A stretch of DNA of 64,000 bases from Candidatus Multivoradales bacterium (GCA_965223855.1 CBDCXM010000009.1:1056001-1120000), one strand, 5' to 3'. Numbered from the stretch's first letter, positions 4,835-23,013 are shown. The notes: generated from the letters alone by a model not told the origin. A program made the numbers and translations.

Positions 4835-4861
4835 CTCTCCTGTATTCGTGTGAGGCCTCTA
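4835..4861 (+). repeat. R end motif (solo, degenerate)
   Basis: ctctcctgtattcgtgtgaggcctcta, followed by the duplication ctattccg..ctattccg. Confidence 0.8.
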
Positions 4862-5007
4862 TTCCGTCTATTCCGCGGGGTGGGCAGGCCCTGCATTGCG
4901 AGGATCCAGCGTCAGTTCGTCGAGAGCGCGTCAGTCGAAGGTCGAGACCGAGTGTATCGAGACACGCCCGCCGACCGAGTTCGTGATCGGCGACGAGTGA
5001 GGTAGCC

Positions 5008-6330
5008 CTAAGAGCCGGTCGCCAACTCGAGCGCGAGTTCGAGCGCGGCCTCCGGGGTGGAAGGGTGGTCGGGGTCGAGGCCGTTCCCTTCCCAGCCGAG
5101 GCCTGTGTCGGGGTCATAGGTGCGCCCGATCGGCAGCTGGAGCCCGAAGTCTCCGGGCAATCGCCGCAGGTCGGCGAGGTGGCCGGCGCCCGCGGTCGTC
5201 TCACCGACAAGGGTCGCGCGGCCGTTGCGGCGCAGGCCGAAGGCGAAGCTCTCGGCGGCGGAAGCGGTGAGGCTGCTGGTGAGCAGGTAGAGCGGCACGG
5301 TCGGCAGGCGGCCGGCCTCCGTGACGGGCTCGGTCCAGCGCTCCTCGGGGCCGGAGGTCCAGGGCGCTTCGCTCACGGCCAGAAGGGTCGGTTCGGCGAA
5401 GAAGTACGACGACAGCGCACGGACCATGGCCGGCTCGCCGCCGGGGCAGCCGCGCAGATCGATGACCATCGCATCGACATCGCGGAAGCGCGGCATCAGC
5501 GCGGCGAGGCGCTCGAGGGCGGGAGGCGAGCCGTCGAAGCCGGCGACCTCGAGGTAACCGATGTTGCCGTCGCGGAGCTCGGCTCTGGCGAGACCGTAGT
5601 CCGCACCGGTCGAGCGCTTCTCCGGCACCGGGCCGCCGTGCTCGGGCTGTCCGTCGTTCGGGCTATGCGAGGAGTCCTCCCAGCGGCCGTCGGCCGTGAC
5701 GGGATCGAGCACGGCGAGATGTCGGTCGTCCTGCAGCTCGCGCAGTTCGCGCGTCAGCGTCTCCGCCAGCCGGATGTTCGAGTCGATGTCGGCGAAGCGC
5801 TCGACCTCCCAGGCGGCCACCGCATCCGCCAGCCGCTCGCGCTGCTCGCGCAGCACATAGGCGGAGCGCAGCAGATGGGCAACCTCCTCGAGCAGGCTCC
5901 CGAGCACGATGCGGTCGATCGTCGGCGTCGCCGGCGCCGGTCGGCCGGGACGGAAGCTGACGGAGAGGGGAGTGTCGCTCCCAGCGTTCTCGAAGGCGAG
6001 GTTCAGGGTGAGGTAGTCGCCCTCCTGTTCGCCTGCGAGCACCAGAGTGGCAAAGGTCGGTCCGGAGTCGGCGATCTCCTCGACCGCTACCTGCCCGTGG
6101 CGGGAGGCGAGAAAGCCGAGCGCTGTCGCCAGTTTCGCGTTGCGTTCGCGCTCGCCGAAGACGGCGTCGAGCCGGGCTTCGCGCTCTGCCGGGTCGGGAT
6201 CGTTGAAGGCCGCGACGATCGCTTCGGCGAGGCGTTGCTCGCGCCCCACCTCGTCGGCTTCGAGGCCGCGGTGACCGACCGCGCTCAGCGCCGCGATCAG
6301 AAGGAGCATGCGGGGGTGTAGGAGCTTCAT
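5008..6330 (-). CDS. S41-family peptidase, secreted
   Basis: Signal peptide MKLLHPRMLLLIAALSAVG; NIGYLEV, MVIDLRGCPGG, TASAAESFAF and LVGETTAGA motifs. Confidence 0.9.
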   Translation of the reverse strand: MKLLHPRMLLLIAALSAVGHRGLEADEVGREQRLAEAIVAAFNDPDPAEREARLDAVFGERERNAKLATALGFLASRHGQVAVEEIADSGPTFATLVLAGEQEGDYLTLNLAFENAGSDTPLSVSFRPGRPAPATPTIDRIVLGSLLEEVAHLLRSAYVLREQRERLADAVAAWEVERFADIDSNIRLAETLTRELRELQDDRHLAVLDPVTADGRWEDSSHSPNDGQPEHGGPVPEKRSTGADYGLARAELRDGNIGYLEVAGFDGSPPALERLAALMPRFRDVDAMVIDLRGCPGGEPAMVRALSSYFFAEPTLLAVSEAPWTSGPEERWTEPVTEAGRLPTVPLYLLTSSLTASAAESFAFGLRRNGRATLVGETTAGAGHLADLRRLPGDFGLQLPIGRTYDPDTGLGWEGNGLDPDHPSTPEAALELALELATGS

Positions 6331-6493
6331 CGAGGTCTCCTTGCTTCGTTGGGTCCACTGGTGCAAACGCCAGAGGGAAGAAGCGGTTCCCGGGAGCCTG
6401 CTGCCGCTCCTGGTCGGGGAACCCACGTCGTGGCGCCGGCAGAGTCGTCGTTGCATCCTCGACGACAGCTGCAGTGGTTTCGCCTGCAGCGCC

Positions 6494-7108
6494 TCAGTAG
6501 GGCAGCGCCTCGTAGACGACGTTCTCCACCAGACCTCCCGGGTGTGGCGTGGTGTTGCTGAAGGTCACCGGCAGTGTGGTGCAGGCGAGGTTGCTGCCGC
6601 ACGGTACGAGATCGAAGTGGACGTGCGGGAAGGTGCCGACATCACCGGTGTCGCCGGTGCGGGCGATCGGGTCGCCCGCCTGCACGGCGTCGCCGACCTC
6701 GACGAGGTTGCCGAACTGCTCGAGATGGACGTACTCGCTGACCACTCCGTCGGCATGCTGGATCTGAATCCAGTTCGATCCGGTCAATCCTCGGCTGCCG
6801 GCCGGCTGGTCGATCCTGAGTCCGACGACCACGCCGTCGCGGGCCGAGGTGACGATGGAACCGAACGGCATCTCGAGGTCGTACGCGTACCTGAGGGTCC
6901 CCTGATGGCTGTGCTGCGTGCAGTTGCCTTGCGAAACTCGATGGGCTCGCCCGACCGGATAGGGAAGTACGTAAGCTGAAGTCGCCCAGTCCGGGTAGCC
7001 GCCGCAGATCTCGTCGGTCGGCGCCGTCGGCCCCGAGGCGTTGTCGTCGCCGGACTCACATCCGGCGGCTAGGAGGGCCAGAACGGCCAGGGCGAGTGAG
7101 CGGGCCAT
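6494..7108 (-). CDS. M23-family metallopeptidase lipoprotein
   Basis: Lipobox LAAGC; HQGTLRYAYD (HxxxD-like), YVHL and PHVHF (HxH) motifs. Confidence 0.9.
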   Translation of the reverse strand: MARSLALAVLALLAAGCESGDDNASGPTAPTDEICGGYPDWATSAYVLPYPVGRAHRVSQGNCTQHSHQGTLRYAYDLEMPFGSIVTSARDGVVVGLRIDQPAGSRGLTGSNWIQIQHADGVVSEYVHLEQFGNLVEVGDAVQAGDPIARTGDTGDVGTFPHVHFDLVPCGSNLACTTLPVTFSNTTPHPGGLVENVVYEALPY

Positions 7109-7168
7109 CGCGACGAGCCTACTCTCTTCGGGTCGAAACCTCGTTGACTGGGCGGACGCCCCAGGTTC

Positions 7169-7210
7169 AGGTGTCACTCCAGCTTCAGGTGTCACAGGAA
7201 CACCGCAAGG
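7169..7210 (+). repeat. L end motif with partial tandem duplicate
   Basis: aggtgtcac (7169-7177), then aggtgtcacaggaacaccgcaagg (7187-7210). Confidence 0.85.
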
Positions 7211-21461: not shown

Positions 21462-21547
21462 AATCTGGGCAACGTCCGCTTCGAGACTACTATTCCAATG
21501 CAGTGGCAGCGGAGCCTTGAGCGAAGGCTGCGTCTCCCCAAAGGAGC

Positions 21548-21571
21548 AGGTGTCATAGGAATACTGCAAGG
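21548..21571 (+). repeat. L end motif of copy 3
   Basis: aggtgtcataggaatactgcaagg. Confidence 0.95.
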
Positions 21572-21603
21572 ATGAGCATCGGATCTCCGTCTGAAGAGAC
21601 GAG

Positions 21604-22509
21604 ATGGGTTACAGACTTCGCCACCTCGCCGGCCCCCGCCTCGTCGAGGTCACCGCTCGCGCTGTCCAGCGCCGCTTCCTGCTGCGGCCGTCCCCGAAGG
21701 TCAACGCCATCATCCTCGGCGCCCTAGCCCGAGCACAACGCAAGTACGGCATGAAGGTCTGCTACTGCGTCTACCTTTCGAACCACGGCCACCTGCTCCT
21801 GTGGCCCGACGACTCGAAGCAGCTCGCCGACTTCATGCGCTACGCCCACTCGAAGATCGCCAAGGAGCTCGGCCGGATCCACGACTGGCGCGGCGGAATC
21901 TTCGAGCGCCGCTACACCGCCATCGAGCTGAGCGAGGAAGAGACTCAGCCGGAGAAGCGGCTGCGGTACCTGCTGGCCCAAGGGTGCAAGGAGAGGCTCG
22001 TCGCATCCCCCAGGCACTGGCCGGGAGCCACGAGTCTGAGAGCACTGACCGACGGCCAAGAGCTCAGAGGCATCTGGATCGATCGCACGGCGCAGTACCG
22101 GGCCCGTGAGAACGGGCACCGAGCTCCTGAGCGGAACTTCACCGAGGAAGAGCGACTGGAGATCACCCCGCTGCCGACCTGGGGCGACCTGAGCGAATCA
22201 CAACGACAGGCGAAGGTCCGCTCGATCGTTCGGGAGATCGAAGCGGAGACCGAAGGCCACAAGGTGCTCGGTCGCAAGGCCATCCTCGAGCAGGATCCTC
22301 ATGGGCGGCCCTCCAGCCATCCTGAGCGCACTCCGGCGCCGAGGTTTCATGCGATCGCTCGGGGTGTGCGCAGAGCCCTGGAAGAGGCCTACCAGTGGTT
22401 CGTCATTGAGTACCGGCGCGCGGCCGAGGCGCTCCAAGCGGGCAAGCCCGCGGACTTCCCTCCAGGCTGCTTCCTGCCCGCTGGGCGCTACATCCCGCTG
22501 AGAATCTAG
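21604..22509 (+). CDS. HUH/Y1 tyrosine transposase, copy 3
   Basis: 301 aa; NHGH HUH motif; bounded by L at 21548 and R at 22724-22762 (element about 1.2 kb). Confidence 0.9.
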   Translation: MGYRLRHLAGPRLVEVTARAVQRRFLLRPSPKVNAIILGALARAQRKYGMKVCYCVYLSNHGHLLLWPDDSKQLADFMRYAHSKIAKELGRIHDWRGGIFERRYTAIELSEEETQPEKRLRYLLAQGCKERLVASPRHWPGATSLRALTDGQELRGIWIDRTAQYRARENGHRAPERNFTEEERLEITPLPTWGDLSESQRQAKVRSIVREIEAETEGHKVLGRKAILEQDPHGRPSSHPERTPAPRFHAIARGVRRALEEAYQWFVIEYRRAAEALQAGKPADFPPGCFLPAGRYIPLRI

Positions 22510-22723
22510 GCAGGTCGCGTCCCTCGAGTCGGACCGGACCGGTTGCCGCCGAGCGCGACGGCCGGTCGCGGCGTGGAGGGGCGTCGCACAACTGCAGCCG
22601 AGAGATTGCTCCGCGGCGATAGCCAGCTCGAGAACGTCCTCGACGCGGCGTTCTCGAGGCCTCCGAGTCGAAGGACATGCGCGATCGCAGCGGATGCGGT
22701 GCGAGCCGCAGCGCGCGTGTGGG

Positions 22724-23013
22724 CTCTTCAGTATTCCCTTCAGTATTCCTGTGAGGCCTCTAGTCGGCTAGTCGGCTCTTCAGTATTCCCTTCAGTATTC
22801 CTGTGAGGCCTCTAGTCCGGGGGCCTCTAGTCCGGGGAGTGGGATCGGCGAGACGGCCTCTAGTCCGGGGGCCTCTAGTCCGGGGAGTGGGATCGGCGAG
22901 ACCAACGTGCGAGCCTCGACGCAAGCATGCGCTCTCCAGTATTCCTGTGAGGCCTCTACCTGGCGGAGCGGCGGCGCGAGTGTGCGCTCTTCAGTATTCC
23001 TGTGAGGCCTCTA
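22724..23013 (+). repeat. Cluster of four R motifs with nested tandem duplications
   Basis: R at 22724-22762, 22776-22814, 22932-22958 and 22987-23013; a 48-bp unit ggcctctagtccgggggcctctagtccggggagtgggatcggcgagac is duplicated at 22807-22854 and 22855-22902. Confidence 0.95.

Follow-up and report, generated by a model that had tools for sequence, protein, structure and literature searches.

A probable long-lived nest of TIRtrons and solo terminal repeats in a low-GC island beside the suf operon of a Candidatus Multivoradales bacterium

RAYT-like genes lying between terminal inverted repeats (TIRs) have carried the name TIRYT/TIRtrons since 2013 (Di Nocera, De Gregorio and Rocco; PMC3733652), and the consulted part of that description also records TIRtron repeats that occur singly, in pairs or in groups. 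Quentin et al. (2018; PMC6006769, consulted part) equate TIRYT roughly with subclass 2.1 of TnpAY1, while REPtrons (Corneloup et al. 2021; PMC8266576) combine RAYT/TnpA-REP with REP or REPIN sequences. Here we analyse a 64,000-nt stretch, hereafter the window, of contig C9 in the genome of a Candidatus Multivoradales bacterium (4.52 Mb, nine contigs, 68% GC), in which an 18-kb array combines copies of an HUH/Y1 transposase gene with short left (L) and right (R) end motifs and blocks of other genes. On sequence grounds we file the L-gene-R unit under the described TIRtron/TIRYT class rather than as a new kind of element; its YLLxQG tyrosine motif and a C-terminal part of its own therefore make it a TIRtron without subclass assignment. 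A preliminary description of the locus had started from the premise that Y1 enzymes normally work without terminal inverted repeats, which the 2013 naming of TIRtrons, as given in the consulted part of PMC3733652, had already made outdated. As argued below, the region is probably an old and persistent TIRtron nest that also holds discrete solo ends and bears rearrangement scars, set in a low-GC island by the suf operon.

As had been proposed, the Y1 element is bounded by L and R as its inverted ends: L has 17 of 19 bases in common with the reverse complement of R. Using a 14-nt core motif (TCACAGGAATACTG, up to two mismatches), we found 17 matches in the window against 0.15 expected, a number attained by none of 100 shuffles. 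Genome-wide, the core gave 26 matches in 4.52 Mb, 17 of them within 18 kb (window 4840-23005); with three intact 301-aa genes and two gene fragments in the same interval, the existence of a motif and gene array is upheld. Long motifs, used for the full site list, place R at 4835, 7637, 7664, 8628, 14830, 16122, 16980, 22736, 22788, 22932 and 22987, and L at 7187, 11473, 18432, 19548, 19733 and 21548, all 17 in one orientation. The 11 R sites and the co-orientation reported earlier thus stand, and the count of about seven L becomes six plus a half L at 7166. Two degenerate L remnants also precede copies 1 and 2 of the gene; weakness of L had been ascribed to copy 1 only, where it is indeed degenerate, but the L of copy 2 is broken as well, with 11 core bases replaced.

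Spacing within the elements is regular. The start codon lies 56 nt past the start of L at 18432 and 21548, as described before, and 124 nt past it in the unit at 7187 because of a 62-nt insert. Trailers from gene to R measure 210-217 nt, in line with the earlier estimate of about 210. R alone folds into a bulged 8-bp hairpin that is followed by no T-run and has fold z-scores of 0 to -2. About 25 nt past the stop codon, all three intact copies carry a GC-rich hairpin, its stem some 12 bp long (14630-14665, 15932-15965 and 22530-22565), which a solitary copy elsewhere in the genome keeps with an apparent single compensatory pair change, again without a T-run. A conserved RNA or DNA structure of the trailer was considered and rejected: alifold covariation is unfavourable (+4.76), this post-stop hairpin is the one shared element, and the 210-nt trailer has no Rfam match. 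The exact 21-nt L/R pattern matched once in species-representative genomes (an Anaerolineales metagenome-assembled genome, at chance level) and not at all in JGI metagenome contigs, public scans that may omit the window's own records.

The intact open reading frames (ORFs), which start at 13704, 15006 and 21604, each encode 301 aa, and their proteins are 94% identical. Profile matches fall below the formal cutoffs, at 18.7 bits for Pfam Y1_Tnp (cutoff 23) and 40.6 bits for NCBIfam REP_Tyr_transpos (E = 2e-10; curated cutoff 80). In a 38-sequence alignment N60, H61, H63, W95, Y122 and K129 are invariant, N60-H61-x-H63 being the HUH motif; the tyrosine motif of the family reads Y-L-L-x-Q-G, and the family profile matches ISDra2 TnpA with HUH and tyrosine in register. 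An AlphaFold model (pLDDT 85) was searched with Foldseek, which returned E. coli TnpA-REP (4er8_A) as best match (TM-score 0.72, normalised to target length; root-mean-square deviation 2.6 Å over 148 columns), followed by the TnpA proteins of ISDra2, IS200 and IS608. There were 18 fold matches with E <= 0.001, and all among the matches listed are IS200-type Y1 TnpA or TnpA-REP. The predicted structure shows the transposase to have the TnpA-REP/IS200 fold with HUH and the conserved Tyr122. A conserved extra part at the C-terminus, residues ~150 to 301, is without a Pfam or PDB match, and Pfam finds neither an HTH nor a DnaA_C domain in the protein. Copy 3 (21604-22509) differs from the other copies, which have N-H-A-H, in reading N-H-G-H, with glycine at the "hydrophobic" position. 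Metagenomes commonly contain homologues, which public sources call RayT; many sit on contigs of about 1.1-1.3 kb, the pattern of collapsed repeats.

The likeness to TIRtrons thus comprises a RAYT-like HUH/Y1 gene with terminal inverted repeats at fixed distances instead of REP hairpins, end repeats that also lie apart from the gene as single, dimeric or grouped copies, and several genes per genome, each with its own ends. The sequence GGGGWSAS, which the consulted part of PMC3733652 gives for many but not all described TIRs, is matched at 7/8 positions by L (GGTGTCAC) and 6/8 by R (GGCCTCAC). There are also differences. Subclass 2.1, in the part of PMC6006769 consulted, has Y---NP where this family has YLLxQG, and its HTH-type C-terminal domain is absent here by Pfam. 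The present protein, 301 aa long, ends in a conserved stretch of 150 aa that matches nothing in Pfam or the PDB, and five copies with at least 10 solo ends lie co-oriented in 18 kb with genes between them. The consulted parts of the TIRtron descriptions (PMC3733652, PMC6006769) contain no comparable co-oriented array.

Other systems are more distant. With REPtrons the locus shares its best structural match (4ER8), the gene-free spread of short end-derived units and an R that is an imperfect bulged palindrome; it differs in having no GTAG foot, tens rather than hundreds of motifs (26 core matches), a multi-copy gene (about 24) and repeats that are clustered rather than genome-wide. IS200/IS605 elements (IS608, ISDra2) have the same catalytic core, with a glutamine four residues past the tyrosine, and a single-strand, strand-specific mechanism that would also apply here, but they carry subterminal hairpins and no inverted ends, their TnpA has 130-150 aa, and their copies within a genome are near-identical. 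IS91, ISCR and Helitrons use Rep-type HUH enzymes on ori/ter ends without inverted repeats, whereas here the ends are inverted and the fold matches listed are IS200-type Y1 TnpA or TnpA-REP. Directly oriented copies or ends with passengers are typical of IS26 translocatable-unit arrays and of one-ended capture by ISCR/IS91, in which passenger movement is documented. The geometry of directly oriented copies or ends with genes between them is the same here and end-skipping capture would be possible, but those enzymes are DDE or Y2/Rep-type HUH, unrelated or distant, and no passenger movement is documented for the present locus. The resemblance to integrons is one of picture only, that of short recombination-like motifs between co-oriented gene blocks: an integron has an IntI recombinase and single promoterless cassettes bounded by attC sites, whereas here the motifs terminate an element that encodes a transposase, and the multi-gene blocks are operons that keep a spacing of their own. 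Among five Phage_integrase matches sought as integron integrases in the genome, the nearest (C9:1292735) lies about 170 kb past the window end. The label "integron-like" finds no support, as no tyrosine recombinase occurs within about 170 kb and the blocks are ordinary operons.

Relatedness and selection point to an old, local origin of the copies. Synonymous divergence (dS) is 0.39-0.48 among the three intact array copies and 0.61-0.90 between these and two solitary copies, and a dN/dS of 0.060-0.076 within the array indicates purifying selection. Identity between array copies is 89-90% for the gene and 85-86% across the complete element; the fragments are closer to array copies (87.5-92% identity) than to solitary ones (82-86%). 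These comparisons show the five window copies to be each other's closest relatives, old and under purifying selection. Since the array copies are nearest kin, with high dS and a dN/dS of 0.06-0.08, the nest appears to have grown locally and long ago, with its genes kept under selection.

The solo ends are 23-32 nt long, have no leader or trailer homology, and are sharp at their inner edges, R at CTCTTCAG and L at CTGCA. Ends occur at all nine boundaries among the eight cargo blocks and their flanks, which bears out the earlier statement that solo ends mark cargo boundaries. In six of the 11 R sites and one L, part of the end is stuttered, i.e. the outer 8-15 nt and sometimes the inner 9-12 nt are present in 2-5 tandem copies (4858-4875, 7161-7195, 8647-8673, 14826-14843, 17000-17030 and 22726-22902). 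Stutter also occurs at other paralogues (for example GGCCTCTATCTC three times at a solitary copy) and in the sister-species genomes G002 and G003; it may be the footprint of nicking and resealing by the enzyme.

The array is one part of a larger set of about 24 Y1 paralogues in the genome, which fall into at least four subfamilies. Five paralogues at 82-100% identity carry A-type ends; the others stand at 52-59%. For 14 of 20 paralogues an aligner recovered an inverted end pair, placed much alike relative to the gene, and at least four end types of related design are present (e.g. GTGCCACACGAATC and CCGGGTGAATAGT). By alignment, each protein subfamily of the genome is shown to have its own matching inverted ends. 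Within the order the gene was found in 28 of 31 genomes, a tally that includes the unpublished genome G005, with 0 to more than 24 matches per relative genome.

Solo ends of other subfamilies often form co-oriented clusters as well. Eight D-type ends (GGTGCCAGGTGAAT) occupy 400 nt at C9:1978286-1978686, 14.5 kb from the nearest Y1 gene, and similar clusters lie at C9:3069146-3069398, 3123626-3124206 and 2635213-2635303. Co-oriented solo ends are found 1-9 kb from a full copy at a minimum of five other loci of this genome as well as in G003:C74 and G002:C57, and co-oriented copies, fragments or solo ends are nested in these two and in G024:C35. Right-end segments, consisting of the 3' part of the gene, the trailer and R, are tandemly repeated in several paralogues. 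At C2:169674-177526, three co-oriented B-type solo L and a full copy enclose the housekeeping nqr operon (NqrA, an FMN-binding subunit, an NqrF-like reductase and ApbE). The ApbE coding region itself contains an exact 17-nt B-type end (AGGTGCCACACGAATCC; C2:169674-169690; L037:1175-1191), an intragenic transposon end that leaves the Pfam domain match unbroken. At its L end, copy 1 of the array borders a 5'-truncated RHS module, and so does the solitary copy at C9:995919-997130; around the latter (C9:990001-998263, L039) an RHS gene of at least 1875 aa comes ahead of a small ORF, the solitary TIRtron and a 5'-truncated RHS orphan that starts exactly at L, the configuration also seen at copy 1. 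Y1 genes tend to run antiparallel to their neighbours (26-28 of 34 flanks here, 8 of 13 across nine further genomes), so co-orientation within an all-minus gene block needs no cassette mechanism. Replication-strand bias was rejected as its source, the paralogues having no consistent replichore orientation (origin at about C9:0.77 Mb, terminus at about 2.99 Mb). Orthology of cargo between the array and the G003:C74 arrangement was likewise rejected, as a C-terminal tag alone matches.

Read from left to right, the array opens with a 124-nt sufS-like fragment (4711..4834, plus strand), 89.5% identical to window 30425-30548, which ends exactly at the inner edge of a solo R (4835..4861, plus; 3/27 mismatches, followed by a 9-nt tandem duplication at 4858-4875). 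This exact abutment supports at least one end being a rearrangement breakpoint. To the left of the sufS fragment, 4600-4632 (GGTGGTGTGGCCTCTGTTCCTCTA) resembles by eye a decayed B-type right end. Block A (5008..7240, minus) encodes an S41 peptidase (5008-6456) and an M23 peptidase (6494-7240), both recognised by Pfam. It is followed by a deletion derivative (7166..7690, plus) made up of the half L, L7187, the 62-nt insert, the leader, Y1 codons 1-94 (7311-7592), R7637 and R7664. Block B (7712..8600, minus; Pfam, PADLOC, NCBIfam) holds a weakly matched DUF6036-like nucleotidyltransferase (NTase) and an XRE-type HTH protein that PADLOC and NCBIfam flag as antitoxin-like. A solo R with one mismatch (8628..8654, plus; 13-nt outer duplication 8647-8673) separates it from block C (8655..11472, minus; GC 62.4%), with an alpha/beta hydrolase (9869-10822) and three ORFs without a family. 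Beyond a solo L with three mismatches (11473..11493, plus), block D (11542..13562, minus) contains a 5'-truncated RHS core with a TNT toxin domain (11916-13562) and a small Zn-ribbon ORF (11542-11919), which we infer to be the immunity gene for the toxin.

Copy 1 (13648..14861, plus) has the degenerate L, the Y1 gene at 13704-14609, a trailer and R14830 with an inner 9-nt duplication; copy 2 (14950..16148, plus) has the L with 11 replaced core bases, the gene at 15006-15911, a trailer and a perfect R16122. Block E (16310..16929, minus) is a Fic/Doc toxin with a ribbon-helix-helix (RHH) antitoxin, whose 92.8% identical paralogue at C9:1039283-1039892 is without motifs. A solo R with three mismatches follows (16980..17006, plus), with outer-end stutter (17000-17030) and (CT)13; this perfect microsatellite (17033-17058) lies just outside the R, and reads are seemingly cut there. 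Block F (17075..18415, minus) is a 446-aa ORF without a family match, its C-terminal tag being repeated at more than 40 genome sites. Next come a perfect L, leader and Y1 codons 1-32 (18488-18584) before a break (18432..18584, plus), and two solo L at 19548-19568 and 19733-19753 (19548..19753, plus). Both partial gene copies, earlier called 5'-truncated, in fact keep their 5' part (aa 1-94 and 1-32) and are 3'-truncated or internally deleted. Block H (19768..21569, minus) encodes a 132-aa ORF and a 429-aa SH3/BTRD1 protein. Copy 3 (21548..22814, plus) combines an L with one mismatch, the gene at 21604-22509, a trailer and a doubled R (22736, 22788) with inner and outer stutter, and the array closes with two 3'-terminal remnants (22870..23013, plus), each a short trailer piece with an R (R22932 and R22987).

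All nine Pfam-supported cargo ORFs lie on the minus strand, in agreement with the earlier remark that most cargo faces the strand opposite to the ends. The functional labels given to the cargo fared unevenly: S41, M23, alpha/beta hydrolase, RHS with TNT, Fic/Doc (doc), RHH and SH3 are confirmed by Pfam and the DUF6036 NTase weakly so, whereas "ricin-like", "membrane", "propeller", "PVEL" and "lipoprotein" have no family match. The blocks are ordinary operons 22-190 nt from the motifs, with R ends downstream of minus-strand stop codons. Only the doc toxin-antitoxin (TA) module is duplicated in the genome; its other, motif-free site is 92.8% identical, with gaps of 49 and 172 nt between the homologous stretch and the R ends. 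No block-plus-end unit occurs in duplicate within the genome. The tag of block F is encoded by a stretch of about 70 nt (17066-17141, at the 3' end of ORF 17075-18415; DGFESGDTSAWS); it recurs at more than 40 other genomic sites and at many in same-genus genomes, and is probably a common C-terminal sorting signal of secreted proteins. A 74-nt direct repeat (8792-8864 and 11496-11569, 92% identical) overlaps two small minus-strand ORFs (8826-9224 and 11542-11919) at their 3' ends and continues downstream of them; the two proteins show no similarity, and homology between the ORFs was rejected.

The array region belongs to a variable island of about 30 kb (C9 ~1.055-1.086 Mb) that adjoins the suf operon and has a GC content of 58-66% as against 68% genome-wide; block GC forms a mosaic across the array, ranging over 62-69%. 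Four same-genus genomes served for comparison at DNA level; they are distant, and their matches are confined to transposase genes, the C-terminal tag repeat and the suf operon. Up to about 29879 the window gave just scattered weak or repeat matches to them and no synteny, while the suf operon is 74-90% identical in the same four. The genome G004 carries a truncated Y1 gene some 400 nt away from sufU, oriented as in the window. The window contains no tRNA genes, and the idea of a tRNA-linked island was therefore rejected.

In the explanation we favour, the mobile unit would be an element of about 1.2 kb, a RAYT-like HUH/Y1 (single catalytic tyrosine) gene between imperfect inverted ends of about 27-30 bp. 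By analogy with IS608/ISDra2 and TnpA-REP, the enzyme would act on one strand, with an HUH-bound metal and a 5'-phosphotyrosine formed at Tyr122. Within one strand L is complementary to R and could pair with it, and R could fold on itself as a bulged hairpin. Cutting and rejoining at both edges of an end, inner and outer, would produce discrete solo ends and stutter, and such local action, repeated over a long time, would have set new copies and solo ends of about 25-35 nt into permissive gaps between minus-strand operons. Imprecise events would account for stuttered ends, internal deletions and breakpoints. The cargo would be ordinary island genes (two TA pairs, an orphan RHS toxin module and secreted peptidases), not captured cassettes.

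Several observations weigh against this explanation. Neither a transposition intermediate nor a target duplication nor a cleavage site has been seen, and we found no biochemical or functional study of TIRYT enzymes in the literature, where TIRtrons are described by sequence only. Within 18 kb, 9/9 block boundaries bear ends, compared with just three other loci in 4.5 Mb, and so strong a local preference is assumed, not explained. The sharp edges of solo ends fit site-specific action but could equally serve the mobilisation of cargo. Copies 1 and 2 hold intact, purifying-selected genes despite broken L ends, which is unexpected for a purely selfish, cis-acting element. GC drops from 69% to 62% between the blocks at R8628. 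Both R...R intervals hold TA modules and all three toxin/antidote modules fall inside L...R spans, an arrangement with a chance of about 0.18 by hand arithmetic. Finally, the assembled contigs of one sample (run X2; most of the joints listed, with 20-23 letters on the shorter side, were disregarded) give a hint of structural variation, both at R8628 and between the two 74-nt repeats: near 8630-8855 one contig swaps R8628 and 224 nt for 31 other letters, and a contig joins 8823 to 11529 across the repeat, with 37 letters in common, skipping 2705 nt, a deletion that would remove block C and L11473. The latter joint may have arisen as an assembler artefact where 31 or more letters are shared. Two back-joints (23015 -> 13719 and 16151 -> 14436) appear in the inserted-letter table only, at depth 2-2.8.

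The ends might alternatively bound cargo-carrying Y1 transposons that use distal ends, any L pairing with any downstream R on the same strand and intervening ends being skipped. On that account, which we hold to be doubtful, there would be three composite units, I (7166-8654), II (11473-17006) and III (18432-23013), each with extra internal ends and passengers, namely TA pairs and an RHS toxin/immunity pair, enclosed by its outermost L and R. The pattern L-(Y1)-R-[TA module]-R does occur twice (7187...8654 and 14950...17006), as does L-[cargo]-L-Y1-R (11473...14861 and 19733...22762), and a strand-specific enzyme would demand the co-orientation of all ends. The sufS fragment occupies the trailer position against R4835, solo ends are sharp at their inner edges, and the tandem right-end segments of several paralogues and the co-oriented solo ends near full copies at the loci named above, G003:C74 and G002:C57 included, also agree with it. 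Yet no composite unit is present twice in the genome, the second doc TA site is free of motifs with homology ending 49 and 172 nt before the R ends, one such enclosure holds the housekeeping nqr operon, and toxin/antidote modules are not significantly associated with L...R spans. The copies are, moreover, old (dS about 0.4), so nothing shows current activity, which counts further against such a mode. The stronger formulation, that TIRtron ends are interchangeable single-strand recombination sites and the array is three head-to-tail passenger-carrying Y1 transposons with toxin modules, seems to us unlikely. The gene-capture platform first envisaged keeps its inverted ends, its ends at block boundaries and the breakpoint at sufS, but loses the integron label and is at odds with the motif-free doc TA paralogue and the nqr enclosure.

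Two further accounts leave the enzyme out of cargo movement. If the copies merely provided portable homology, blocks could be swapped by homologous recombination between copies or short repeats on incoming DNA without Y1 action on the cargo. RHS and orphan-toxin loci do rearrange by recombination, the blocks are mosaic in composition, and the 8823-11529 joint of run X2 spans the 74-nt repeat; that joint may be artefactual, however, homologous recombination is poorly served by identities of 89-90% in the gene and 85-86% over the element and needs more length than the 25-30 nt of a solo end, and the sharpness and stutter of solo ends would be left unexplained, all of which renders this account rather improbable. 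Domestication of the Y1 genes and ends as host regulators, terminators or insulators, as argued for RAYTs and REPs, would account for long retention and for a dN/dS of 0.06-0.13 where dS reaches 1.1; intact genes persist in copies 1 and 2 although their L is broken, R ends lie 22-190 nt past minus-strand stops, and R folds as a bulged 8-bp hairpin. That hairpin has no T-run and fold z-scores of 0 to -2, while some 24 paralogues, a copy number of 0 to >24 among relatives and the many homologues on ~1.1-1.3-kb contigs resembling collapsed repeats are element-like, and we give domestication very little credence.

The locus brings together in one place an unusually rich natural substrate series for one enzyme: intact elements, elements with a broken L, internal deletions, sharp solo L and R, stuttered ends and a gene fragment fused to an end. 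It therefore supplies concrete oligonucleotide substrates and predicted cut positions for the question that TIRtrons raise, namely how a single-tyrosine, single-strand transposase uses inverted ends. If distal ends are usable, a gene-mobilising mode would be added to the RAYT/IS200 superfamily, thought to move only itself or short repeats, and this would help to explain the gathering of TA and polymorphic-toxin modules in islands. If they are not, the array would be a good case of an old mobile-element nest that mimics a cassette array.

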